From an uncultured virus (IMG/VR IMGVR_UViG_3300033553_000790) (lineage: Duplodnaviria; Heunggongvirae; Uroviricota; Caudoviricetes): a stretch of 64,000 nt of DNA. The position numbers were made by a program, and so were the translations under genes. Below are positions 6,776 through 58,831 of this stretch, piece after piece; within the stretch, counting starts at the first letter, position 1, and the number at the start of each line of letters is the position of its first letter. The stretch is taken from IMG/VR virus record IMGVR_UViG_3300033553_000790; one strand, written 5' to 3'. The notes below the pieces were generated by a model. The model was given only the letters and a program-made list of their open reading frames with translations. It did no database searches and was not told where the DNA came from.

Positions 6776-8098
6776 ATGAGAATACAATGCGATAACGAAT
6801 CCAAGCACGTCTTCCACTATGAAGGTTCTGCTCGTCATTTAGAGTGCGCCAAAAAAGATTCCATACGGGAGGGGAAAATGACTAAATACCAAAAAGGAAT
6901 AGTGTATGTAGATTCATTAAGAACCTCTCCTAAGATAAAAGAACCAGGCTACATAGGGCACGTTATAGATGTTGACCTCTTAGACAGCAATATAAAAGAC
7001 AAATTTGTTTCAGCCACCCCTCATGAAGACCCTAACGTACCTTATGTAATTCTAAATTACACGCCGCGCGCCGCTTATGCTCAAGAATGGAACGACGCCA
7101 CCATACACAGCAGAGGTTTAATATTCGACAAAAACACTGGTGAGATAATAGCTAGAGGTTTCCCTAAATTCTTTAACTACGGTCAATTAGACAGGGATGA
7201 AATTAAAGCGCTTGAAGGTCCAGTAACAGTGACAGACAAAATGGACGGTTCTCTTGGTATACTTTATAAACTGCCCAACGGAGAGTATGCTATATCAACT
7301 CGCGGTAGTATGAACAGCGATCAGGCGGTACGAGCCACCGAAATATACAGAAATAAATATAGCGCCCACCAGCCAGAAGAAGGCAAAACATACTTATTCG
7401 AAATCATTTATCCAGAGAACAGAATAGTATTAGACTATGGCGATAAAGAAGATATCGTTCTTTTGGGGGTTCAGAATAATGTAACGGGATTAACTGAGGA
7501 TCTCTCTGATAGCTCTAACAAATGGCCGGGAGAAACAACAGAGATATTGCCATATTCAAGCTTTGACGAAGCGCTTAAAGCGCCAATCCCCGAAAACAAA
7601 GAAGGCCTTGTGCTCTATTTTCATGATAGCGGCCAGAGAGTAAAACTAAAAGGAGACACTTATTTAGCTCTCCATAAAGCTAAATTCGGACTGAACCGAA
7701 ACAAAATTATTGATGCTATAAACACTCTTAATGATAAGGAATCTTTGGACTCTTGGGTCGCTTCTCTGCCCGATGAGGTCTATACGGATGTAAAGAAATT
7801 CATTAAGGAATACAATCACACTAAAAAAGAAATAGTCCTTAAAGCAACTGAAGATGTGAAATCAATAGAAGCTAAAAACCTAACTGTTGCAGAACAACAT
7901 AAAGCTATAAGTTCGTTAGAGTTCAATACATTAGCGCAGATAATATGGGCATCAAGGATGAACAATAAAGACCATAGTTATACTAAAAATATGATAAACA
8001 GCTTCTTCGTTAAACAGTTCAAATCGGGTAAAGGGCTAACCCATAAGTTACCTCCTTTCGAAACTAAAAACATTGTTGGGAACAAAGAGGACGCATAA
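6776..8098 (+). CDS. T4 Rnl1-like RNA ligase
   Basis: SRGLIF, FPKFFN, KMDGS adenylation motif, LFEII, EGLVL, RVKLK. Confidence 0.85.
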   Translation: MRIQCDNESKHVFHYEGSARHLECAKKDSIREGKMTKYQKGIVYVDSLRTSPKIKEPGYIGHVIDVDLLDSNIKDKFVSATPHEDPNVPYVILNYTPRAAYAQEWNDATIHSRGLIFDKNTGEIIARGFPKFFNYGQLDRDEIKALEGPVTVTDKMDGSLGILYKLPNGEYAISTRGSMNSDQAVRATEIYRNKYSAHQPEEGKTYLFEIIYPENRIVLDYGDKEDIVLLGVQNNVTGLTEDLSDSSNKWPGETTEILPYSSFDEALKAPIPENKEGLVLYFHDSGQRVKLKGDTYLALHKAKFGLNRNKIIDAINTLNDKESLDSWVASLPDEVYTDVKKFIKEYNHTKKEIVLKATEDVKSIEAKNLTVAEQHKAISSLEFNTLAQIIWASRMNNKDHSYTKNMINSFFVKQFKSGKGLTHKLPPFETKNIVGNKEDA

Positions 8099-12404: not shown

Positions 12405-13016
12405 ATGAGACAAATCAACGGCACCGCACTAGTAATAGTTGACATACAGAACGACTTCTGCGAAGGGGGATCTCTCGCAATAGAGGGCGGAAACAGGGTA
12501 GCGGAAAGAGTTGCTGATTTCATTCGCAAAAACAGAACCGATTATCACCTAATTGTAAGTACTCAGGATTGGCATATAGATCCGGGTGAGCACTTTGAAA
12601 CATGGCCCGTACACTGTGAAGCAGACACTTCTGGGGCGGCAATTAAAAACGAAGTGATCGCCGCTCTGAAAGATACAGAAAATTCAGATGTACCTTACAT
12701 TCCTTTCTACAAAGGTCAGTACGACGATGGGTACTCCGGATTTGAAGGTAAAACACAACACAAGGGGAAACTAGATGACACGCTCAAGCGCTACGGCATC
12801 AAGAACCTTCACGTGGTTGGATTAGCAACCGACTTCTGCGTTAAAGCAACAGCAGTTGACGCTAACAAAGCCGGATACAACACGCTGGTCATAAGTGATT
12901 TAGTAGCTGGAGTTTCTAAAGATTCTGAAAGCATTGTCAAATCAGCAGGAATAAATTTGATTTCCGCCCAAGAAGCTGCTAGACTTATACCAAGTGAACT
13001 TTTAGTAGCAGAGTAG
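12405..13016 (+). CDS. pncA: nicotinamidase
   Basis: VDIQNDFCEGGSL, TQDWH, WPVHC, YSGFEG, GLATDFCV. Confidence 0.95.
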   Translation: MRQINGTALVIVDIQNDFCEGGSLAIEGGNRVAERVADFIRKNRTDYHLIVSTQDWHIDPGEHFETWPVHCEADTSGAAIKNEVIAALKDTENSDVPYIPFYKGQYDDGYSGFEGKTQHKGKLDDTLKRYGIKNLHVVGLATDFCVKATAVDANKAGYNTLVISDLVAGVSKDSESIVKSAGINLISAQEAARLIPSELLVAE

Positions 13017-13031
13017 AACAGGACAAAAGGT

Positions 13032-13775
13032 ATGGAAAGATTATACGACTCTCATGGTTACCCGGTAAATACGGTAGCTGTTGACGCAGTTCTTTTTGCT
13101 ATTGTTAACAGCAGCCTGTGTGTCTTAGTTGACCAGCGTGAACAAAAAGACGGGGAGGGGCTGTTCTCTATTCCTGGCAGGTTCTTAAAAATTGATTTCA
13201 CCCCAGAAGAGAGCATAGATGCCGAACTCATGGATATAGGAGTTAAAGATCGAATATCTTATTTCGAGCAGCTAGGGGTAGCTGGAAGCCCAAATAGAGA
13301 TCCCAGGAAAAGAATTGTATCTATAAACTATTTCGGCATTGTTCCTTTCAATAAAGACCGCACCTCTCAACCTAAAACGCAAACAGCAAAAGGGGTGTTC
13401 ACATGGGTAGAGGTAGATTCCCTGACAGAAGCCGAAATGTTTGCTGATCATTTTTCTATAATAACTAACGCTCGTGAACGCTTAGCTAACAAAATGGAAT
13501 ACTCCCTCATAGGAATAAACTTCTTAGACAGCGATTGCTTCACAGCTAATGACATCTACCAAGTATATTCTGTTGTTTGGGGAGAGAAGCTAGACCTCCC
13601 TAACTTCAGAAGAAAACTACTTAATAACGAGAATGTTCAGACGCTCGAAGGTAGAAAGTCGCTCAGTAAAATCCATAAGATAGCTAGAACATCTCAAGCT
13701 TATAGTATTAAAGGGGATGTAAGTAGCCTATCTGTAAAACCTGTTCTTCATCCGCCCATTCTAAGGAAAACTTAA
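13032..13775 (+). CDS. nrtR: NrtR-family Nudix-wHTH regulator of NAD metabolism
   Basis: degenerate Nudix box, EQL...RDPR, DH, LDLPNFRRKLL wHTH; follows pncA. Confidence 0.85.
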   Translation: MERLYDSHGYPVNTVAVDAVLFAIVNSSLCVLVDQREQKDGEGLFSIPGRFLKIDFTPEESIDAELMDIGVKDRISYFEQLGVAGSPNRDPRKRIVSINYFGIVPFNKDRTSQPKTQTAKGVFTWVEVDSLTEAEMFADHFSIITNARERLANKMEYSLIGINFLDSDCFTANDIYQVYSVVWGEKLDLPNFRRKLLNNENVQTLEGRKSLSKIHKIARTSQAYSIKGDVSSLSVKPVLHPPILRKT

Positions 13776-25591: not shown

Positions 25592-26233
25592 ATGTCAAGA
25601 AGGATACTAATAACAATGATTACAATCATATCAGGTAAAGCTAAAGGTCAAAAAGTTGATTTCTTCACTAGCGACCAGCACATAGGCCACGCTAACATTG
25701 CGCGTTTAGCTAACAGACCATTCAACAATGATTACTCAACCGATAAGATGGATAACACAATTATTGATTTATGGAATAGTGTAGCCTCTCAGGGTGACAC
25801 CGTACTAGTACTTGGGGATGTAGCTCTCGGCTCTATAGAAGTTTCTCTAAACAAATGGAAGCGGATGCTAGGAAGGAAGCTCCTTATTCCAGGTAACCAC
25901 GATAGGGTTTCCAGTCTCGAATCTCAATCACGTCAGTCAAGGTTCCGCCCCATGTATGAGGATGCTGGCTTCACAATACTTGACGAGATTGTAGAGTTAG
26001 AATCCAACGGAACTAAGTTCTTAGCTTCCCATTACCCTTACTTTGGCGACAGTCAAGGTTCCGATAGGTTCAAAAATATGAGACCACAAGATAATGGGCT
26101 TCCGCTAGTTCATGGACACACGCACTCATCGGAGGCGTTCAGGTCTAATGATCGGAAACATTTCCATGTTGGCGTGGACGCACATAATTTTAGACCTGTT
26201 TCAGCTCAAACAATTGAGCAGTGGTTAAGATAG
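25592..26233 (+). CDS. calcineurin-like metallophosphoesterase
   Basis: SDQHIGH, LGDV, GNHD, SHYP, HGHTH, VGVD. Confidence 0.88.
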   Translation: MSRRILITMITIISGKAKGQKVDFFTSDQHIGHANIARLANRPFNNDYSTDKMDNTIIDLWNSVASQGDTVLVLGDVALGSIEVSLNKWKRMLGRKLLIPGNHDRVSSLESQSRQSRFRPMYEDAGFTILDEIVELESNGTKFLASHYPYFGDSQGSDRFKNMRPQDNGLPLVHGHTHSSEAFRSNDRKHFHVGVDAHNFRPVSAQTIEQWLR

Positions 26234-26989: not shown

Positions 26990-27011
26990 TATATTTTAAG
27001 TTCCGTTCCTT

Positions 27012-27236
27012 TTAAGATTCTTCTTGGTTAACAATGTGACCTACAGCTTCACCTAAAGAACTAGCAGAGTAGAGGCTACGACTGAGGTCTGTGGGCATGC
27101 GGACACTCCATACACCTGCGCTCTCCCTGAAGATATGGTATTCAATAACGTAGGTTCCTTTTCTCATAACTGTGACAGTCCATATGTTTTTGGACTCAGA
27201 ATGTGACTGGCTTACTGTATATTGTTGATCTGCCAT
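27012..27236 (-). CDS. hypothetical protein
   Basis: AGGAG RBS. Confidence 0.55.
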   Translation of the reverse strand: MADQQYTVSQSHSESKNIWTVTVMRKGTYVIEYHIFRESAGVWSVRMPTDLSRSLYSASSLGEAVGHIVNQEES

Positions 27237-27360
27237 AGTGGTCTCCTAACTAGTTATTTTCGTTATGTTGTTTATCCTAACGAATGTTTAATGCTACTAT
27301 CCCCCGTTAGAGTAAAAACATTATTATAGCACAGTTCACCGAAGCGGAGGTCTAATCAGT

Positions 27361-27690
27361 ATGTCTGAAGAAACAATGATTTTTACGGAAAATAAATATA
27401 AAGCTTTCATGGAGTTTATGAAATATTTAGATAACATGGACTTTTCAACACCCACAACTGAAGAAGAGGATCGGGCTTTACATGATAAAATAATCGCTAC
27501 ACTCTACACTCTAGTAAGCACCCTTAAAGATGTAGCTGATAAAAAAGACGGACATGTACCAGTTAAACCCTATGAAGATGCTGTTAAGCTTATAAGGATA
27601 GTTGCCCAGAACTTAGACATGGACACCCCTGAGGATAACGAAGCTTTAGAGGAAAACTACAAAAGAACTTTAGCTACTTTAGAAGGCTAA
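27361..27690 (+). CDS. hypothetical protein
   Basis: GGAGG RBS. Confidence 0.55.
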   Translation: MSEETMIFTENKYKAFMEFMKYLDNMDFSTPTTEEEDRALHDKIIATLYTLVSTLKDVADKKDGHVPVKPYEDAVKLIRIVAQNLDMDTPEDNEALEENYKRTLATLEG

Positions 27691-28105
27691 GAGCTGCTGC
27701 TGCTTCTTTAGCTTTCGTTTCCCAACCGGTGTCGAACGCCTCTCTGCGTAAAGAGTTCTTTGGCTTATTTGAATCACCGATTTCAGGTTGGAAGGTAAAA
27801 CTTCTCCAGAAAGCTTTCTCCGATGTGTACGGCCCGGTTAGGGCTACTTTACTGGCGTTGAACTCATTACCCCATGGTTCTAATATACTCGATAGGCTAG
27901 CATCTTCTCGACGCCCATAAGCGTCAATCGCTATGTTCTCTTTCTTATCTTTAATGAAATAATGGTCAACGTATTTCCGGTTTCTATCCTGCTTCAGGCC
28001 GTATATAATAAACCGTTTAGGGTCTAACTTATGTACATATAACGCCAGCTCAAAACAGTAACCATGAGTGTACTCTTCAATTAACTCTGATTTATCATTA
28101 TGCAT
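27674..28105 (-). CDS. hypothetical protein (C...H...D pattern)
   Basis: YTHGYCFELA, DHYF, IDAYG. Confidence 0.55.
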   Translation of the reverse strand: MHNDKSELIEEYTHGYCFELALYVHKLDPKRFIIYGLKQDRNRKYVDHYFIKDKKENIAIDAYGRREDASLSSILEPWGNEFNASKVALTGPYTSEKAFWRSFTFQPEIGDSNKPKNSLRREAFDTGWETKAKEAAAALSLLK

Positions 28106-28176
28106 GATGGTATCATATCAGATAAGTTATATGTTAGAATATTTATAACACGAATTTGGTGTAAGGAGCCGGAATT

Positions 28177-28542
28177 ATGAGTTACTTTTACCATTTAGCA
28201 AAGGACATTAACACAGAAGGGGCTGTCATCGCGACAACTCTTAATGCCGCAATCATAGGTCGCTTACACGAATATTTCGTACATAGCCTACATATTTGTG
28301 ATGATTTACCCATTAACGTAAAAGTTAAATTATCTTACCTTAAAGATGCTGTACCGGTGATTGATAAAGCCATAGCAGCTGATGACTTTAGCGGCTTACA
28401 TTGGCACCTCTCAGCTCTTTTCCCATTAGAGAAAGCACGATCTGAAGCTACAAAAGTTAAAGAATACATTAAATATCTGATGGAAACTTACTCTGAAGAT
28501 ACCATCTTCATCTATACCATAGATCGAAGAAGAATACGTTAA
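28177..28542 (+). CDS. hypothetical protein, paralog of 28753-29118
   Basis: LHEYFVH..HICDDLPI...DDFSGLHWH shared. Confidence 0.7.
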   Translation: MSYFYHLAKDINTEGAVIATTLNAAIIGRLHEYFVHSLHICDDLPINVKVKLSYLKDAVPVIDKAIAADDFSGLHWHLSALFPLEKARSEATKVKEYIKYLMETYSEDTIFIYTIDRRRIR

Positions 28543-28566
28543 CGACGAACTTCGAGAGCCGCTTCG

Positions 28567-28677
28567 AGCCATATATGATAGTAATTATTTAGGGTCTAAC
28601 TTGTGTACATATAAGACCATCTCGAAACAGTAGCCATGCGTGTACTCTTCAATTAGCTCTGATTCATCACTATGTAT
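28567..28677 (-). pseudogene. truncated duplicate of the 5' end of 27674-28105
   Basis: translates IHSDESELIEEYTHGYCFEMVLYVHKLDPK; start ATG changed to ATA. Confidence 0.75.
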
Positions 28678-28752
28678 GATAGTATTATAGTAGAACGTTA
28701 CGTTAGAATATCTTTTACACAAGAAACATTTTATTCAAGGAGCAGTAAACCA

Positions 28753-29118
28753 ATGTATTTTTATCACTCTTCAAAAGACCCCACAACCGAAGCTGTTACC
28801 ATGACCCAAATGGATGTTGACTTACTGGTTCATTTACATGAATATTTTGTGCATGCTATACATATTTGTGACGACTTGCCAATTGACATAGAAGTGAAAA
28901 TGTCTTACCTTAAAGATGTTTTACCGGTCATTGATGAAGCTATAGCTACTGATGACTTCAGCGGTTTACATTGGCACATCTCAAAGGTGTTCCCCATAGA
29001 GGAGGCACGGAGCGAAGCTAAAAATCTAAAAGCTTACATAACGATGATAATTAAAAGCTACCCTGCTGATACAACTTTTATTTATACAGTGGATTTAGAT
29101 GATGAGGAGGAATTATAA
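28753..29118 (+). CDS. hypothetical protein, paralog of 28177-28542
   Basis: AAGGAG RBS then ATG 28753; high similarity to upstream copy. Confidence 0.7.
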   Translation: MYFYHSSKDPTTEAVTMTQMDVDLLVHLHEYFVHAIHICDDLPIDIEVKMSYLKDVLPVIDEAIATDDFSGLHWHISKVFPIEEARSEAKNLKAYITMIIKSYPADTTFIYTVDLDDEEEL

Positions 29119-29120
29119 GG

Positions 29121-29861
29121 ATGAGTAACTTCGAAAGCCGGTTCAAAGCAAAAGAATCCCAATACCGTAACGTCCTTGAAAGAAGAAGCTTATATGCCAT
29201 TCGTGTAGATGGTAGGGCTTTCAAGAATTACACATCTAAGTTTGATAAGCCTTTTGACACTAAATTCATGGAAGGGATGAACCAAACATGTGTTGCTTTA
29301 TGTAACGAAGTTGCTGGAGCTATATTAGGTTACGTTCAGTCCGATGAGATAAGTGTGATCTTCTCCGACCTCAGTGGTGAGAAAACAGAAATGTGGTTTG
29401 GCGGCAAACAAGATAAAATTATTTCCATAGCCGCTTCAACAGCTACAGGGGCTTTAATAAACGCCTTAGGGTCAAACCCCACTCCAATGTTCGACGCTAG
29501 AATACTCAAATTAGATAACGTTAACGAAGCGGAAGACTATTTAGCTTGGCGCTCCGGAGATGCTTTCAAGAACGCCATTTCAATGGCAGCTAACAGTCGA
29601 TATTCCAGCAAACAACTAGATGGGATGAACACACCCCAAAGAATAAGCCTCCTCGAAAAGGAACAACCGAAACTATATGCCAGCCTACCTGAAGGCTTCA
29701 AACACGGAAGGCTAGCTATGAAAGAAGACTACAAAGGTATTGTTGAGTTCTTCCATAAAGGAGATCAGGAAAAGAAAGTAATTGAAGTCACTAAAACCAG
29801 ATGGAAAGTAGATAGTTTCAAAGTAAACAACGCATCTTCAGTGTTACAAATGTTCAAATAA
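29121..29861 (+). CDS. Thg1-like protein (tRNA-His guanylyltransferase / 3'-5' polymerase)
   Basis: IRVDGRAF, KPFD, YVQSDEIS, FDAR, WR..DA..N. Confidence 0.92.
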   Translation: MSNFESRFKAKESQYRNVLERRSLYAIRVDGRAFKNYTSKFDKPFDTKFMEGMNQTCVALCNEVAGAILGYVQSDEISVIFSDLSGEKTEMWFGGKQDKIISIAASTATGALINALGSNPTPMFDARILKLDNVNEAEDYLAWRSGDAFKNAISMAANSRYSSKQLDGMNTPQRISLLEKEQPKLYASLPEGFKHGRLAMKEDYKGIVEFFHKGDQEKKVIEVTKTRWKVDSFKVNNASSVLQMFK

Positions 29862-29864
29862 AAT

Positions 29865-29900
29865 TTGCCACCCAAAAAAATGTATGCTATGATACCGATA
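29865..29900 (+). promoter_or_regulatory. sigma70-like promoter plus CCGATA element upstream of tRNA
   Basis: TTGCCA (29865-70), 17 nt spacer, TGn-TATGAT (29888-93); CCGATA 29895-900. Confidence 0.65.
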
Positions 29901-29910
29901 TAAACATTAA

Positions 29911-29982
29911 GCCCTTATAGCTCAACGGCAGAGCAGAACATTCTAAACGTTATGGTTGTGGGTTCAAATCCCACTGAGGGCA
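29911..29982 (+). tRNA. tRNA with CUA anticodon (amber suppressor type)
   Basis: acceptor GCCCTTA/TGAGGGC, D arm GCTC/GAGC, loop TT-CTA-AA (anticodon 29943-45), T arm GTGGG-TTCAAAT-CCCAC, discriminator A, no encoded CCA; anticodon stem has two mismatches. Confidence 0.85.
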
Positions 29983-30006
29983 CGCAGAAGAAAAGAAGGT
30001 AACAAC

Positions 30007-30138
30007 ATGGAAAGAGCAAACACTTTCACCTAGGTTCTAATTAACGAACCACTATTTTCTGCACCATTTTTAGGACATACTGACTTATTGTTAGTGTGTC
30101 CTTTTTTAGTACCCAAAAACAAACGAAAGGAAAAATAA
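30007..30138 (+). CDS. putative leader peptide with internal amber codon (MERANTFT*VLINEP...KEK)
   Basis: AAGG RBS, ATG 30007, TAG 30031-33, open to TAA 30136-38 which overlaps the next ATG. Confidence 0.6.
30072..30107 (+). terminator. intrinsic terminator / attenuator inside the leader readthrough frame
   Basis: 13-bp stem AGGACATACTGAC / GTTAGTGTGTCCT (with G-U pairs), loop TTATT, T-run 30102-30107. Confidence 0.8.
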
Positions 30139-30509
30139 TGGAATCTAAAGAAGCACAGGAATTAGTTAAAAAGTATGAGGAATTCGCAGAGTTCATAGAG
30201 AACAGAGCATACGTGGTGTTCGATGCGGTATACCCTGATCGGCATTCAGATTACTTATCCTTCTTAGCTGTTGAAGGTAAAACAATCGTAATGGAAGAAA
30301 GTTACAGGGGAGAAACCGAGGGGCAGCGCTATTTCCCCATCGACACGTTCTTCATGAGCGATGAGCAGCTAAGTAAAAAGAAGGAGAGTAATTTAGCTGA
30401 TGTAGCAAAGAGGAAACTGGAAACTAAAGCTGCAGCAGAAAAGCAAAAAGAAACCAGGGAGCGGCAGTTACTAGAAGAGTTACAAAAGAAATACAACCCA
30501 ACCAACTAA
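30138..30509 (+). CDS. hypothetical protein, paralog of 30524-30913
   Basis: ATG 30138 after AAGGA; identical C-terminus RQLLEELQKKYNPTN. Confidence 0.7.
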   Translation: MESKEAQELVKKYEEFAEFIENRAYVVFDAVYPDRHSDYLSFLAVEGKTIVMEESYRGETEGQRYFPIDTFFMSDEQLSKKKESNLADVAKRKLETKAAAEKQKETRERQLLEELQKKYNPTN

Positions 30510-30523
30510 ACGAAGGAAAGAAA

Positions 30524-30913
30524 ATGAAACTATCGGAAGCACAAAAAGCCGTTGCACGGTATGAGGAGTTAACTGAGTTGATCGAAAGTAAAGCTCATAT
30601 GGTTTTCGATTCGCTTTACCCTAACCAACATCACAATTACTTCGAATTCGAATCCGTAGAGAATAACCAAGTCACACTAACGGAGAGATACAGGGATGAT
30701 CTCGAATATCATCACTTCCCTTTAGAGCTATTCTTCAGAAGTGATGAGCAACTCAAACAAGACAAGGAGGGCACCTTGGAAGCAATGAAACAAGCTAAGC
30801 TTAAAGCTAAAAAACTTGCTGAAGAAGCTAAAGCAAAAGCCGCGCAGCAAAAAGAAATCGAAGAGCGTCAGCTTTTAGAAGAGTTACAAAAGAAATACAA
30901 CCCAACCAACTAA
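30524..30913 (+). CDS. hypothetical protein, paralog of 30138-30509
   Basis: EAQ..V..YEE...VFD..YP...FP...FF.SDEQL shared. Confidence 0.7.
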   Translation: MKLSEAQKAVARYEELTELIESKAHMVFDSLYPNQHHNYFEFESVENNQVTLTERYRDDLEYHHFPLELFFRSDEQLKQDKEGTLEAMKQAKLKAKKLAEEAKAKAAQQKEIEERQLLEELQKKYNPTN

Positions 30914-30929
30914 ACAAAGGAAAAAGAAA

Positions 30930-31922
30930 ATGACCTAGGTACAAACAAACAACAAATTATATGTAATCACCCACAACCAACTATCAGCAGGGGCTCAGAC
31001 CCTCCAAACGGCGCACGCTGTTGCTGATTGGATTGTGGCTAACCCAACAGAGTGTAAAAAATGGAAAGAAGATTCCAACTCCATTATTGCTTTAGCTACA
31101 AAAACAGAAGAAGAACTGTACGGCCTGTTAAAGAAAATAGATGAACAAGGCCACAGTTACACTATTTTTCGTGAACCTGACTTCGGGAATGCCATAACAG
31201 CTATCGCTGTGACCCCGGCTGGTAATAACAAGAAGCTATTCGCTAATCTCCCTTTAGCTGGTAAGATAACCGACTTAGAATATGAAAGTAGGAAACTAGC
31301 TGGCGAGCGAAAGAAACGAAAAGCTAGTTTCGATATGTTCAACACCGACCAAGCTGAAAGTCAGAACATAATGGAGCACGGAGAATCTGTCTACCGGCAT
31401 TACACTCAAATCAAAAAGCATATGGAAGGTAAAATAGATTTAAGTGACAACCCTTTCTGGATAATACCCGAATGGTTAAACGAAAATTTTTACAACATAT
31501 TGGAGAACTTACCGTCAGATTATGTCATGGAAAGATACTTGACACTCCATGATTGTGGTAAACCAGCCGTACAAATAACCGTGGATGGGAAGAAAAGATT
31601 CCCAGGTCACGCAGAAGCGTCAGCTGATATGTTCAGAACAGTTTTCTCTCATGATATGACATCTGAAAGCGACCAACTGATAGCACACTTTATTGAGTAT
31701 GACATGGATGTTCATATGCTAAAAGCAGATGATGTGGAGGAATTTGCTTTATCTGAGTATGCTATGACACAATTTATTGTTGCCTTATCGGAAATAATGG
31801 CTAATGCTGAAATGTTCGGAGGAACAGAATCTGTCAACTTCAAAATAAAATATAAAACCTTGAACCAGCGAGCTAAGAAAATGTTCAGAATTTTAGAAGA
31901 GAAGGTGCTGATAAAAGTTTAA
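30930..31922 (+). CDS. PTH2-like peptidyl-tRNA hydrolase fused to HD domain; amber codon at position 3
   Basis: ATG ACC TAG GTA... is in frame with the 31035 ORF and restores KLYVIT...GAQTLQTAHAVA; FREPDFGNAITAIA; HD part EHG...LHDCGK...GHAEASA. Confidence 0.8.
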
Positions 31923-31928
31923 TTAAAT

Positions 31929-32261
31929 TCAGTATGCCCTAACTACATCTAAATCAGCAGGGAAACCCTGGGAAGTGGCGAGTATTTTTCTACCAACCGT
32001 CATTTTCCAGGGAAGATCCTGCTCAATGAGGAAGCGTTTGGTGTCTAAATAGTTGACAACTTTAGAATTCAGCATCCTCAAAGTATCATACGTCCCAGGA
32101 CATATGTCGGTATCAACCACTTCATTTAGAGTAAGTAGAGTGCCGTCTGAGCCTTGAGAAGAACCAAAATTAGCCTGTTTGAATAGCTCTTCAACTTTTC
32201 CCTTGTTCTCTACAAACAAGGTAACACTATCGAAAGAAGATACTAGCTGTATTGCGTACAT
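31929..32261 (-). CDS. hypothetical protein
   Basis: AGGAG RBS. Confidence 0.55.
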   Translation of the reverse strand: MYAIQLVSSFDSVTLFVENKGKVEELFKQANFGSSQGSDGTLLTLNEVVDTDICPGTYDTLRMLNSKVVNYLDTKRFLIEQDLPWKMTVGRKILATSQGFPADLDVVRAY

Positions 32262-32402
32262 GGGGGCTCCTATTTATTGTTGTAATGTTCAGATATTCTC
32301 TAACGTATCTTAAATAGCCCATGCCCATAATCTTGCTTTTACATAAAAAGTATGATACTATTTACAATAATTAAAATATACACAAAGGACCAGGAAACAT
32401 AT

Positions 32403-33242
32403 ATGACCAGCTTAAGTAACAAAAATAATTTACCAGATAACTTCATGCTTGTTAGGCATGGGCTGTCTGAAGCTAACATATTTCAGAAAGGCCAGTTCCC
32501 TAACGGAGCGAAACTTGAGGTAGTTCCTGAGGAATTCGGTACGCGCCATGACAGCCTGATGCGTTTATCTCAACACGGAACTGAGCAAGCCGAAGCTGCC
32601 GGAGTTTGGCTGAAAAACTGGCTCGAAGCTAACAGTATGGCTAACTTCGAAAGGTTCTATGTTTCCCCGCACCTTAGAACAAAAGAAACAGCGGCCCACT
32701 TAGGGTTAGGTGGGGAATGGCGAGTGGATGACCGCCTCCGTGAACGCGACTGGGGTTTGCTAGCTCCGCTCAGTAAAGAAGTCCAAGATACTGACCACAA
32801 AGCTGTAATGGCTTTGAAGAAACAAAACGAATGGTACTGGCAGCCGCCGTCAGGAGAATCTTTAGCCACAGGCGTAAGAACACGGTTCACACAGCTCATG
32901 GATTCTTTATACAGGAAGCCCGCCGCTGGCAGTATCATTGCCGTGACCCACGGTGAGCTAATCCGCACAGCACAATTCGTTCTAGAGCGTATGACCCCTC
33001 AACAGTGGCTTAAAATGGACAGTAGCGGCGATTACAGAATAAAGAACTGTATGATACTCCATTACACGCGAGTTAACCCGGTAACAGGTGAAAAATCAGA
33101 CCGATACACCCACAGGCGCGCTATCTGCCCGTGGAATTCAGACTTCTCATGGAATGGTGAACAATGGAGTGAAATTGAATATAAGCTCTACAGTGACAAG
33201 GAGTTACTTAACAGTTTAGAGAAATATCCTAGATTACTTTAA
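32403..33242 (+). CDS. histidine phosphatase (phosphoglycerate mutase family)
   Basis: LVRHGLSEAN, SPHLRT, LRERDWG, GES, VTHGE. Confidence 0.88.
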   Translation: MTSLSNKNNLPDNFMLVRHGLSEANIFQKGQFPNGAKLEVVPEEFGTRHDSLMRLSQHGTEQAEAAGVWLKNWLEANSMANFERFYVSPHLRTKETAAHLGLGGEWRVDDRLRERDWGLLAPLSKEVQDTDHKAVMALKKQNEWYWQPPSGESLATGVRTRFTQLMDSLYRKPAAGSIIAVTHGELIRTAQFVLERMTPQQWLKMDSSGDYRIKNCMILHYTRVNPVTGEKSDRYTHRRAICPWNSDFSWNGEQWSEIEYKLYSDKELLNSLEKYPRLL

Positions 33243-35381
33243 GCCGGTTTCTTTAAGCCAGCGTACTTTCCCAGCATCCCAGATGCGAGGAATTCCGTTA
33301 AGCGCAGCTAACTCCTTCTCTGTCATCCCTTCTTCATAATTCAAATTAGGGTCATTCCTAAACCTTTTAATTCTGTAACCAAACTTATGGTTACGCTTAC
33401 CTTCACTTATGTACATGTAATCAGGCGCTAAATTCTCATCTAAAGTGAAACCATTATTTTCGTATAGTCCACCATCACTCACAGTGTTGTCAGAGAAAGT
33501 AACCCATTTCTTTATTCCGGGGATGTCTCTTTCAGCTTGTTTCATAAGTTTAGTGAAACCACCCGGAATACCAACACTAGTCGCATAACGCTCTATAAGC
33601 CATTTACCTTCATCACCCGTGCTACTGGCGGCTTTGATAACTAGGACAGCGACAAGCCCCTTCTCTGGGCTGGTAAGACCATAATATTTACTACCAGCAG
33701 CGGAGCCCTGAACGTGGTTAAGGTTCAAGAAATCTGAAGCTGTAGCATAATCCACTTTAACAGCATTAAGTTTCCTCGCCCCTATCCTTTCCGAACCGGA
33801 GGCCTTAAGTTTATGTAGCAACGAGCTCTTAATGAACTCTCCATTAGCTGACCAGTCATCCTCCCATATCTGGATTAACTGTATACCGAGATCCTTACAG
33901 ACTTTATATTTATTGTAATGATACCACTTGTCTTTACCCATAGCTTCGCTATGCCAATACAAACCGTTGAACTCTACAGCTAAATTCTTCTCAGGCAAAT
34001 GAATATCCAACTCACCTTTAATGACATCCCGAACTGACTGTAAAATCTCAGTGTCAGGCAAAGCCTCTTTCAGATAAAGGAAAAGGTCCTGCTCCGCTTT
34101 GGAAATGCGATTAGAGCATTTAGGGCATCCGTGTTCAGCAAAAACGCGACTGTCTACATCAGTCCTCCATGTATGGTTCTTATTTTTACTACAAACCCAA
34201 TAGAACCTATCTTTAGAGCTAACACCTATGCTATGTGGATCTACATCATTTTTAACATAATCCCATTCTTTTAGAAGCCCTGGGAACCTTGTGGCGAAAT
34301 CGTTCACCCCGTTATCAACATAATACCCAGCACAGGTCGGGCATTTACCTAAAGTGCTGACCGGAGATTCCCATTTATGACCTTTCTCGCATAACCAGAA
34401 AACGTCTTTCCTCATACCTCTCGTATAGTTCTCCGGACCTTGCTCATTCTTGGTGTAATCCCAGCGGTCTTTTATTTCAGGGTTAGTTGTCAGGATGTCA
34501 TTAAACCCTTCCAAAACAACCCTGTTCCGGCAGACAGGGCATCTTTCCTGTGAGCCTGTTTTCCTCTCACGCGTAACATCACTAACCATAGCTGACCAAG
34601 AATGACCTGAAGCGCAGTGCCAATTGAGGGTAACACCGCTTTTAACTGTAATTTTATCTAAGTCAACATCCGGGTTGTCTGTAGTTTTTAGCATCTCGAA
34701 GAGATGTGGGAGCCCCGAAGATAACAACTTACCTGTATTGTAAACTCTTGCTGAGCCGGGTTTCCGACCAGCGCAAATTGGGCATCCTTGATTATGGGCA
34801 CTGCGGTTATTGACTGAAGCAACCCACCCATGCCCGCAAGCTCCAACCCAAATAACTTTTTTCACCGAACCATAAGTAACCTCTTTAGGGGTTAACTCAT
34901 TTTTGTCAGACCATTCAGCAGCAAGCTCAGGATGAGTTGTTGCCAAATCATTAAAACCACGCAGAATAACACGGTTCGCGCAGACATCACACTTACGCCC
35001 CTTCACACGCGCTTTAACAGCGGCTTCCCATTCATGACCTAACTTGCAAACCCACAGCACTTCTTTCCCACTTATAGGAGTAACATCTGAAGCAGCCAGT
35101 TCATTATTCTTGGACCACTCAGCTGCTAATTCAGGGTGAGTAGTAGCTAAATCATTAAACCCAACAATTAACCTCCTACCCGAACACACAGGGCAAAGAT
35201 ATGTTTTACGAACCCTATCCCTCGCTGCTGAACTCCAAGTATGACCAACAGGACATAACCAATATATTTTCTTAGCTGAATTCAACGATATCTGACCAGG
35301 AGTTAAAGAGCCATTCAAAGCTGGGTGCCACTCTGAAAGCACCCCACCAGGGGCATCCTCATAAGTTAAGTCAGTAGACAT
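33234..35381 (-). CDS. free-standing homing-endonuclease-like protein with tandem zinc-ribbon repeats
   Basis: repeated W.C..GH.W.....R....CP.C units; ELDIHLPEKNLAVEFNGLYWHS nuclease core; WEDDW. Confidence 0.75.
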   Translation of the reverse strand: MSTDLTYEDAPGGVLSEWHPALNGSLTPGQISLNSAKKIYWLCPVGHTWSSAARDRVRKTYLCPVCSGRRLIVGFNDLATTHPELAAEWSKNNELAASDVTPISGKEVLWVCKLGHEWEAAVKARVKGRKCDVCANRVILRGFNDLATTHPELAAEWSDKNELTPKEVTYGSVKKVIWVGACGHGWVASVNNRSAHNQGCPICAGRKPGSARVYNTGKLLSSGLPHLFEMLKTTDNPDVDLDKITVKSGVTLNWHCASGHSWSAMVSDVTRERKTGSQERCPVCRNRVVLEGFNDILTTNPEIKDRWDYTKNEQGPENYTRGMRKDVFWLCEKGHKWESPVSTLGKCPTCAGYYVDNGVNDFATRFPGLLKEWDYVKNDVDPHSIGVSSKDRFYWVCSKNKNHTWRTDVDSRVFAEHGCPKCSNRISKAEQDLFLYLKEALPDTEILQSVRDVIKGELDIHLPEKNLAVEFNGLYWHSEAMGKDKWYHYNKYKVCKDLGIQLIQIWEDDWSANGEFIKSSLLHKLKASGSERIGARKLNAVKVDYATASDFLNLNHVQGSAAGSKYYGLTSPEKGLVAVLVIKAASSTGDEGKWLIERYATSVGIPGGFTKLMKQAERDIPGIKKWVTFSDNTVSDGGLYENNGFTLDENLAPDYMYISEGKRNHKFGYRIKRFRNDPNLNYEEGMTEKELAALNGIPRIWDAGKVRWLKETGLK

Positions 35382-38473: not shown

Positions 38474-39286
38474 CTATTTTTTGGTTGGCAAAGTCGCATA
38501 CTGCGCAGATTTTTTCACGTCATCCGGAGTCACAATGAGAGTATGTTTAGACATTTCAGCAGACCCTTCGTCAAGGCTTATAACCATACCGTAAGGCGCT
38601 GCTTTGTAAAAGTTGGTGTGATAATGACCGTGAACTATGAGAGATGGCTTAGCGGCGCTATAAACAGTGTCAAGTACTTTTCTATGGTCGTTAGATGAAA
38701 CGATGTTGCTCTCACCGAAGAAGCGGATACCGTTCATCTGGGAGATAGGGTCGTCCGTTATTGTGTTAGGTACACTGATAGGCGAATCATGCGTTATCAT
38801 AAGGTCTATTTTCCCTGCGCTTTTGGCATTGGCAACAGCTGTTTTCACATCCTGGTCGTTTATCAGCTCTTCAATCCACCAACTTTTCCCTGGAACTCTA
38901 CCATCTTTATCGACAGAGTAAGCTCCACCTAAAGCTAAAACGTTAAGACCTTGCCATTTGAAAACAAAACCTCTGGGCATGTGAAGAATATGTGGGGCTA
39001 TTTCCCGTAGACCATCTTTGTTGATTGGAAAACCATATAGTTTATTGAAATTCTCATGGTTACCATCAATAAAATAGCATGTTATACCAGCTGCTTTCAA
39101 ATCCCTTTCAAGCTTATGGATGAACTTATCCCCCTCATTGCCTTGCCATATACCGAAATCGCCAACCTGGATTATTGTTTTAATATTATTCTTAACGGCA
39201 TGACGAACTACAGCTAAAGCCTGGCCGGTGAAACCGTGCCAATCTCCAGCGAAGAGAATTTTATTGTCATTCAAGCTGATCGCCAT
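38474..39286 (-). CDS. metallophosphoesterase
   Basis: GDWHG, VGDFG, DGNHE, GGAYSVD, THDSP, HGHYH. Confidence 0.88.
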   Translation of the reverse strand: MAISLNDNKILFAGDWHGFTGQALAVVRHAVKNNIKTIIQVGDFGIWQGNEGDKFIHKLERDLKAAGITCYFIDGNHENFNKLYGFPINKDGLREIAPHILHMPRGFVFKWQGLNVLALGGAYSVDKDGRVPGKSWWIEELINDQDVKTAVANAKSAGKIDLMITHDSPISVPNTITDDPISQMNGIRFFGESNIVSSNDHRKVLDTVYSAAKPSLIVHGHYHTNFYKAAPYGMVISLDEGSAEMSKHTLIVTPDDVKKSAQYATLPTKK

Positions 39287-58327: not shown

Positions 58328-58831
58328 ATTAAAGATTTAAGAGTTAACCGACAGATCCGCACTAACCGGGACATCCTGTTAGTGGTACCGAGCCAGTCTG
58401 CTCCTGTTCCCGTAGCAGTAGAATCAGCTATCAGGTTAGCTGAAGAGCAAGGCCTCGACTTAGTAGAAATGAGCAACCAGAATGGTGTTTCTACTTGTAA
58501 AATTATGGACTACGGCAAATATTCTTATAAAAAGAAACAAGCCGAAAAAGCTAACCGCCAAGTCAACAAACATATTACCAAAGAGTATAAATTCGGCGTT
58601 AACATTACAGACCACGATCTGGGCATAAAGATATCCCATATGTCTGAATACATAGACAAAAATGCTGTCGTTAAAGTAACTATCCGACTAAGAGGTAGAG
58701 AAATGTCTCACCCCGCGTTAGCCGTTAGCCTCGCTGAAAAAATTTCTGCCGGACTGGGCGATAAGGCTAAGATACTACAGGCTATGAGCACCGAAGGTAA
58801 CACGATGCATTTTTCTCTTGTGAAAAAATAG
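58328..58831 (+). CDS. infC: translation initiation factor IF3 with ATT start
   Basis: AAGGAG then ATT 58328 gives (M)KDLRVNRQIR; GLDLVE, CKIMDYGKYSY, HDL..K, VKVTIRLRGRE. Confidence 0.88.
   Translation: MKDLRVNRQIRTNRDILLVVPSQSAPVPVAVESAIRLAEEQGLDLVEMSNQNGVSTCKIMDYGKYSYKKKQAEKANRQVNKHITKEYKFGVNITDHDLGIKISHMSEYIDKNAVVKVTIRLRGREMSHPALAVSLAEKISAGLGDKAKILQAMSTEGNTMHFSLVKK

Follow-up and report, generated by a model that had tools for sequence, protein, structure and literature searches.

The pyrBI leader of E. coli and pyrE behind rph are attenuators that are coupled to translation without an alternative fold: a ribosome close behind the polymerase enters the terminator hairpin and blocks termination, the stop position of the upstream open reading frame (ORF) decides on read-through, and the signal is the nucleotide supply, which slows down the polymerase. 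In the trp and his attenuators, a short leader ORF with a ribosome binding site in front of an intrinsic terminator senses the availability of a tRNA via sense codons in the leader, by means of competing antiterminator and terminator hairpins. A stop codon is employed in an engineered switch for unnatural amino acids, in which a TAG placed in the leader peptide is reported to control downstream transcription (PMC6412442). Phage suppressor tRNAs, on the other hand, are usually explained by genome-wide stop-codon recoding; in the code-15 phages (crAss-like, Lak and jumbo phages), a phage tRNA(CUA) reads UAG, and a role in the timing of expression has been proposed (PMC9523058, 10.1101/2021.08.26.457843, PMC11210395, PMC13037316). 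Here we describe a locus of the uncultured virus IMGVR_UViG_3300033553_000790, in which an eight-codon leader ORF ending in TAG lies between the gene of an amber-suppressor tRNA(CUA) and an intrinsic terminator, followed by an operon of three genes (gpA, gpB and a PTH2-like/HD gene; Table 1). The window, i.e. the whole stretch of DNA that was analysed, comprises 64 kb out of a 229.6-kb contig (229,613 bp), and the counts of genes, terminators and TAG codons given below refer to this window.

Compared to pyrBI and pyrE, regulation at this locus would likewise depend on a ribosome entering the hairpin close behind the polymerase, with the differences that the signal would be the decoding of UAG by the phage suppressor tRNA and that a pause site is conjectural here. 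The leader frame runs through the hairpin, as is typical for this kind of coupling, only if UAG is decoded. With the trp and his attenuators, the locus shares the short leader ORF with a ribosome binding site before an intrinsic terminator (Shine-Dalgarno (SD) sequence AAGG, ATG 30007, hairpin and T-run at 30072-30107), whereas a stop codon takes the place of the sense codons and no competing hairpin is present. The engineered switch is similar in that suppressor read-through of a leader UAG decides on downstream transcription; it is synthetic and reportedly acts via an unmasked rut site (Rho) and not via an intrinsic terminator (PMC6412442), while the present case would be natural. In contrast to the code-15 phages, with many in-frame TAGs and TAG shunned as a stop, the window uses TAG as an ordinary stop: the stop codon of its 66 curated genes is TAA in 49 cases, TAG in 11 and TGA in 6, and a single gene, the PTH2-like/HD gene at 30930, carries an in-frame TAG. 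A transcription attenuator that senses the suppressor is a possible explanation of this arrangement, which we put forward tentatively and with somewhat less than even confidence. The complete proposal, namely a natural attenuator sensing the phage's own suppressor tRNA via a stop codon, with a feed-forward second UAG gate (an in-frame UAG shortly behind the start codon) at the last operon gene of an otherwise standard-code phage, is slightly more tentative.

Table 1. Features of the suppressor-tRNA unit and of the operon behind it (positions in the window).
Feature	Position	Strand	Details and basis
Thg1-like tRNA 5'-end guanylyltransferase/repair gene	29121..29861	+	PF04446 E 1.5e-24; phrog_4717 E 3.5e-58; just upstream of the tRNA
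Sigma-70-like promoter site, TTGCCA-17-TATGAT with TG (extended -10)	29865..29893	+	about 10 nt before the tRNA; 10/12 matches, consensus match only
Amber-suppressor tRNA, anticodon CUA, without encoded CCA	29911..29982	+	ARAGORN; Rfam RF00005 61.9 bits, E 4.9e-13
Structured 3' trailer	29983..30066	+	closing helix 29984-29991/30055-30062 enclosing two small hairpins
SD-like AAGG of the leader	29996..29999	+	7 nt before ATG, spacing equal to that of gene 30138
Leader ORF MERANTFT	30007..30033	+	8 codons: ATG 30007-09, GAA AGA GCA AAC ACT TTC ACC; TAG 30031-33
Gate context ACCTAGGT of the leader TAG	30028..30035	+	identical to 30933-30940
5-bp hairpin, then U-rich tract	30033..30050	+	starts at the G of UAG; weak terminator-like site; in the minimum free energy (MFE) fold
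Read-through frame	30034..30138	+	translation with TAG as sense: 34 sense codons, then TAA 30136-38 overlapping ATG 30138-40 (TAATG)
Intrinsic terminator	30072..30107 (hairpin 30072-30102)	+	13-pair stem (5 G-C, 2 G-U), 5-nt loop, T-run to 30107; fold and shuffles
gpA, 123 aa	30138..30509	+	own SD; word search finds only itself; 4 representatives at E up to 1e-3
gpB, 129 aa	30524..30913	+	tandem paralogue of gpA (48% identity, E 5e-33); repeated junctions
PTH2-like + HD-like gene, amber-gated	30930..31922	+	SD AAGG 30917-20; ATG 30930, ACC, TAG 30936-38 (codon 3); profiles, homologue N-termini

The stretch is best explained as the 3' trailer of a self-contained suppressor-tRNA transcription unit, which on sequence grounds would consist of the promoter-like site, the tRNA(CUA), an 88-nt structured spacer and a strong intrinsic terminator. 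The initial annotation had described the leader ending at TAG, the hairpin with T-run beyond it and, provided that UAG is decoded, a frame that stays open through the hairpin up to a TAA on the start codon of the next gene. Every coordinate was found to be exact; the distance from TAG to the hairpin amounts to 38 nt instead of the annotated value of about 40, and the read-through product comprises 43 residues with a hydrophobic middle and a basic tail. The leader ATG begins 25 nt after the end of the tRNA(CUA) gene. By the criterion applied to its SD-like sequence, a site was found at 35 of 55 gene starts of the window compared to 227 of all 2217 ATGs (10%). Among the possible frames, only that of the leader is open through the hairpin (30034-30135 open across 30072-30102). 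The 8-mer ACCTAGGT around the leader TAG occurs three times in the 64 kb; the second copy (30933-40) forms the context of the second gate about 0.9 kb downstream, and the third (39931) is out of frame.

The terminator hairpin showed an energy of -19.7 kcal/mol (z -7.0), and none of 200 shuffled sequences was equally stable. It represents the sole terminator-like hairpin with more than 10 pairs on both strands of the 64 kb, since the runner-up comprises 10 pairs (-11.9 kcal/mol) inside a gene, and all others have at most 10 pairs and lie within genes as well. An independent promoter behind the hairpin, which the initial annotation had regarded as evidence against attenuation, was not observed: a consensus scan between the terminator and the three downstream genes revealed no sigma-70-like site, and the gap between the T-run and ATG 30138 leaves 30 nt for one. 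Accordingly, gpA, gpB and the PTH2-like/HD gene depend either on read-through of the terminator or on an unseen promoter type, with the caveat that the phage encodes its own sigma factor.

The last of these genes provides a second case of a UAG close behind a start codon. After TAG 30936-38, 327 open codons follow, which run into the gene listed from GTG 31035; gene callers and the database shorten the PTH2-like/HD gene to 295 aa from this GTG. The additional 35 residues lift the match to PF01981 (PTH2) from 20.6 to 28.1 bits (cut-off 23), to phrog_1866 from 24.7 to 50.8 bits (with the alignment beginning at residue 1) and to phrog_3668 from 27.8 to 44.9 bits. The resulting N-terminus KLYVITH..QTAHA aligns with those of homologues, of which P0021-P0024 carry K-I/L-Y-x-V-T-H...Q-T-x-Q-T-A-H, and neither ATG nor GTG nor TTG is present between TAG 30936-38 and GTG 31035. 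Since the extension raises the profile scores and matches the homologue N-termini, and since no alternative start is present, it is concluded from these alignments that the gene truly starts at ATG 30930 and requires decoding of the UAG at codon 3. The predicted product is PTH2-like both by the Pfam cut-off and by the match of the family profile to Pth2 chains in the PDB (E 4.9e-4 to 9.8e-4). Its C-terminal part of about 270 aa (phrog_14850) showed invariant H, HD, H and D positions and a weak HD-domain match (E 0.009).

For a comparison with other phages, two samples of loci from IMG/VR were used. The first one was obtained with a degenerate pattern covering the D-arm and anticodon loop of the tRNA and comprised at least 120 loci. 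Among the matches listed, at least 69 carry a tRNA(CUA) where it would be expected, the closest tRNA is identical to that of the window at 58 of 72 positions, none being a close homologue, and 14 of 120 contain a PTH2-like gene with TAG 2-5 codons after the ATG (MT-stop, ML-stop, MKH-stop). The second sample was based on an alignment of the PTH2-like family (A2) and yielded 80 loci, with a gate defined as an ATG, at most 9 codons, a TAG and then the homologous region. Such a gate is present in 63 of the 80 loci (50 distinct sequences), and 32 of these 63 have a tRNA(CUA) within 4 kb. In relatives with the tRNA in first position, 11-67 nt separate the tRNA from the start of the gated ORF, without a terminator between them. 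Behind the gate TAG, 44 of the 50 distinct sequences have a purine (29 A, 15 G), the other 6 have C, and none has T; at the ordinary TAG stops of the window, a purine comes next in 5 of 11 cases. A purine on the 3' side favours suppression. With regard to the neighbouring codons, ACN precedes the gate TAG in 14 of 50 cases, GTN follows it in 13, and 5 show the combination ACN-TAG-GTN.

The leader possesses most features of such a gate: SD and ATG, TAG as ninth codon, the context ACC TAG G and a tRNA(CUA) 25 nt upstream on the same strand. It differs from the gate at 30930 in that it does not open onto a long conserved coding frame, the 34-codon read-through being without a homologue. Since the leader UAG is placed where the relatives keep the start of their gated gene, and has the family-typical Thr-amber-Val context, it is very probably a real amber gate.

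Gates consisting of ATG, 1-8 codons and TAG also precede unrelated small genes beside tRNA(CUA) among the matches listed within L081-L200, for example the 'CR[DE]VVFHFNK' family of L116/L127 and the genes of L081 and L155. Split or swapped-domain forms of the PTH2-like family have an own gate on each gene. Two loci among the matches listed (L082/L087) contain another short amber leader, with an SD-ATG followed by 8 codons, TAG-GTT and 6 codons up to a TGA, located 24-72 nt after tRNA(CUA), and the next gene has its own SD; the fold around this SD is no better than that of shuffled sequences, of which 159 of 300 were equally stable.

According to the attenuator proposal, ribosomes would end at UAG, 38 nt before the hairpin, as long as the suppressor tRNA is absent or inactive. 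A ribosome stopped there would leave the hairpin free, so that the terminator would form and most transcripts would stop behind the tRNA. As soon as newly made tRNA has been processed and charged, UAG would be decoded, and the ribosomes would move on behind the polymerase across both hairpin arms, hindering the hairpin sterically, as in pyrBI and pyrE, without the need of an alternative fold. The ribosomes reading through would be released at the TAA on the gpA start codon. In consequence, transcription of the operon of gpA, gpB and the PTH2-like gene would require working suppression, which the second gate (30930) would recheck at the level of translation. As a conjecture, the 5-bp hairpin at 30033-50 could act as a pause site at which the polymerase awaits the ribosome. 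Altogether, the proposal presupposes translation of the leader, a decrease in termination upon read-through and the timing logic described.

A number of findings weigh against this proposal. With about 100 nt between the AUG and the T-run, the ribosome could catch up with the polymerase only if the latter paused, and tRNA processing may cut the trailer off. In the full trailer fold, the leader SD is mostly paired with ACCU 30028-31 (probability of being unpaired 0.12-0.27); in the nascent RNA it is open (0.57-0.71). Because gpA has a good SD of its own, coupling at TAATG is not required. No antiterminator alternative was found when the 3' arm of the terminator was blocked in silico: the 5' arm remained without a notable partner, the MFE changed from -38.6 to -20.6 kcal/mol and the remaining fold was unchanged, from which it follows that any control must be steric, of the pyrBI/pyrE coupling type, and not based on competing hairpins. 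The initial annotation suggested looking for the same layout after homologous tRNAs; the combination of leader and terminator is absent from 69 of 69 other phage tRNA(CUA) loci among the matches listed, none of them a close homologue, and 4 of these loci have a terminator-like hairpin. Terminators are also not enriched after the gates of the family (1 of 50 compared to 48 of 1000 control windows). A 29-mer and a 22-mer of the tRNA are absent from viral_contigs and genome_contigs, where the trailer gave no match either, and neither the rest of the window nor the loci used for comparison contain a second copy of it. Close relatives are represented by proteins alone (P0002 89%, P0003 83%, P0019 72%, P0020 79%), encoded on contigs of 1.5-3.2 kb. 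Finally, the exact match of the two gates over 8 nt would be explained by a joint left by duplication or rearrangement just as well as by function. What holds of the attenuator reading in the initial annotation is the part concerning UAG as a deliberate sensing codon, which is supported by the same ACC-TAG-GT at 30930 and the 63 gates in 80 family loci, often beside a tRNA(CUA); neither antiterminator pairing nor a recurrence of the layout nor an enrichment of terminators elsewhere was observed.

A serious alternative, to which we give somewhat less confidence than to the attenuator, interprets the leader gate as a relic. An ancestral layout in which the gated PTH2-like gene came right behind the tRNA(CUA) would have been split by a rearrangement that brought the terminator and the gpA/gpB array in after ACC-TAG-GT and duplicated the 8-mer. 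The repeated junction would have supplied the gene with a new SD-ATG, its former start would persist as a functionless 8-codon ORF, and a plain terminator would leak enough for the downstream genes. Such an origin would agree with the direct succession of tRNA and gated gene in the relatives (11-67 nt apart, without a terminator between), with the position of the ACCTAGGT repeat exactly at both ends of an 897-nt block, and with a terminator layout found in no other locus compared. Furthermore, the junctions terminator/gpA, gpA/gpB and gpB/PTH2-like (J0, J1 and J2) share CCCAA..AAC.AAAC.AA.GGAAA...ATG, and because the three are homologous, the SD-ATG before ACC TAG at 30930 belongs to the tandem unit. 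It would remain to be explained in this case that 34 codons stay open through foreign sequence, for which the chance is about 0.12 (estimated from base composition), that SD, AUG and TAG are all intact, and that 155 nt of dead sequence were kept, which dense phage genomes seldom do. The leader as a duplicated 5' end of the PTH2-like gene was considered and rejected, as the similarity past the 8-mer is insignificant: 13 of 30 positions match, a value reached by 1136 of 20000 random positions, which speaks neither for nor against a joint.

A mini-ORF that arose by chance in an ordinary tRNA trailer, with promoter, tRNA and terminator forming a plain unit, is improbable. All chance figures are post hoc, as the finding was selected from 64 kb. 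In dinucleotide shuffles of the 88-nt spacer (n = 20000), 885 contained an SD+ATG mini-ORF ending before the hairpin, 239 such an ORF ending in TAG and 54 (0.27%) the full layout. The single elements are common, since one in ten of all ATGs of the window has an SD-like site, TAG closes 58 of the window's 126 SD+ATG mini-ORFs, and stops directly before starts are frequent in the A/T-rich upstream regions, for which reason the TAATG overlap adds little. The combination of SD+ATG, TAG and at least 34 subsequent open codons was found in 11 cases in the 128 kb of strand of the real window, one of them being ATG 30930, which corresponds to about 0.006 expected per 65 nt. A chance ORF would moreover have to show the ACC/GT flanks of the second gate and the family, expected for about 0.4% of random TAGs (estimate from base composition) compared to 5 of 50 family gates, and would have to lie by accident in the position after the tRNA in which the relatives have gated ORFs. 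Thus, judged post hoc, the leader layout is not readily given by chance.

Even less probable is a trailer that acts as a functional RNA, be it a tRNA 3'-processing element, a stable small RNA of the 3' external transcribed spacer type or a theta-like self-cleaving ribozyme. Stable small RNAs of the spacer type exist as a class, and minimal ribozymes like that of hepatitis delta virus (HDV) have a compact nested P1/P3 topology, a double pseudoknot with P1 enclosing P2/P3 over some tens of nt; for a theta ribozyme behind a phage tRNA, cleavage no more than 5 nt from the tRNA 3' end would be expected. Theta ribozymes are reported to adjoin phage suppressor tRNAs (PMC10879173). The spacer fold (29983-30066) reached -18.9 kcal/mol (z -3.3), with 1 of 200 shuffled sequences equally stable, and spacer and terminator together -38.8 kcal/mol (z -5.1); a helix begins one base after the tRNA. 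No Rfam family was found at E up to 10 bar noise, no copy of the trailer occurs elsewhere, and a structured trailer leaves the gate context unexplained. The sole helix starting at the tRNA end extends over 63-65 nt, at odds with this compact topology. A theta ribozyme is not supported, given that the 6-7-bp helices from 29976-29997 span 51-67 nt and no HDV-like Rfam match was obtained at E up to 10, this being a weak test; an exception is a 6-bp GAAGGT/ACTTTC helix at 21 nt, which does not start at the tRNA end.

The least probable explanation, an amber-gated micro-protein gene of 43 codons overlapping the terminator, could refer to the unrelated families gated next to tRNA(CUA) (L081, L116/L127, L155) and to the hydrophobic middle and basic tail of the product, but a large part of its sequence simply follows from the hairpin and the T-run, the hydrophobic stretch is interrupted by charged residues and forms no clear membrane helix, and a search for homologues is precluded, since such an ORF escapes gene callers.

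In the window TAG is a normal stop, yet the tRNA heads an operon with two UAG gates. If the attenuator proposal is true, this would be the first natural attenuator reading a stop codon, as none was found in the literature searched, which was covered mostly at the level of abstracts. The locus would then also indicate a purpose for suppressor tRNAs in standard-code phages, represent the natural counterpart of the engineered UAG leader switches and supply a compact element with which orthogonal tRNAs could exert synthetic control. If the leader is instead a relic, the PTH2-like/HD gene with its amber gate still constitutes a solid and recurrent device, which is systematically truncated by gene callers.

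With respect to the two other operon genes, domain and PHROG scans revealed no family for gpA and gpB and only weak representatives, so that they form a nearly orphan family. The model of gpA (predicted local distance difference test score, pLDDT, 89.9) showed a helix, a 3-stranded sheet and a long helix, and a PDB search at E up to 0.001 yielded no fold match. Directly behind the terminator, the 3' end of the gpA/gpB unit recurs in degenerate form (within 30112-30932).

At the other end of the unit, the promoter-like site (29865-29893) is the top match within 27000-33000 and one of 7 sites on the + strand of the window with at least 10 of 12 matches. The tRNA(CUA) is encoded by the sole tRNA gene of the window. 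Its anticodon stem (29936-29952) comprises just three Watson-Crick pairs, which are flanked by G.A and A.C pairs. Dispersed around the tRNA, a toolkit of the tRNA-repair type was found at 6776-8098, 29121-29861, 25592-26233, 32352-33242 and 38474-39286, whose members are a T4 Rnl1-type RNA ligase, the Thg1-like enzyme, two metallophosphoesterases and one histidine phosphatase.

The phage has no close relative among 50,697 phage records (best DnaE identity 44.7%, best Thg1 below 60%), and the DNA of the window was matched in two runs of one cold-spring metagenome study. A blastn search with 29100-31000 against phages and a search with the Thg1 protein against viral_contigs gave no match. In metagenome_contigs, 80 Thg1 loci were found (best 43% identity), none of which contains a tRNA(CUA) and which share no neighbour genes with the window except for an HNH-type and a phosphoesterase match. 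A scan of genome_contigs with the PTH2-like family yielded 1 distant locus.

The window has a G+C content of 41.5% and is densely packed with genes in the standard code. It encodes a DnaE-type polymerase, a class I ribonucleotide reductase with NrdI and NAD salvage enzymes, as well as RecG- and RadA-like proteins, a sigma factor and an IF3 homologue. Back-up stops behind the TAG-ended genes of the window were not evident, the next in-frame stop being located at a median of 15 codons after TAG compared to 9 after TAA. Within 12405-13775, the nicotinamidase-like gene ends with GAG TAG AAC, and an NrtR-like gene begins 5 codons further on in the same frame, so that amber read-through would fuse both. 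The context TAG AAC also occurs in 6 of the 50 distinct gates of the PTH2-like family. In-frame fusions across TAG were considered for 12405/13032 and 59955/60351 and rejected, as these pairs share a frame across TAG but consist of separate complete domains.

At several genes without an SD (11108; 28105 on the - strand; 62284; 45520), a -10-like box (TATAAT or TATGAT) is present whose end lies 5-7 nt upstream of the ATG, which suggests leaderless mRNAs. The IF3 homologue (IF3_N + IF3_C, 58382-58831) was called from a GTG and has 30 open codons upstream. Between the genes of the ribonucleotide reductase subunits, 33234-35381 on the - strand encodes a protein of 715 aa, in which the DUF4379 treble-clef zinc finger is repeated six times and which matches HNH/homing-endonuclease PHROGs.

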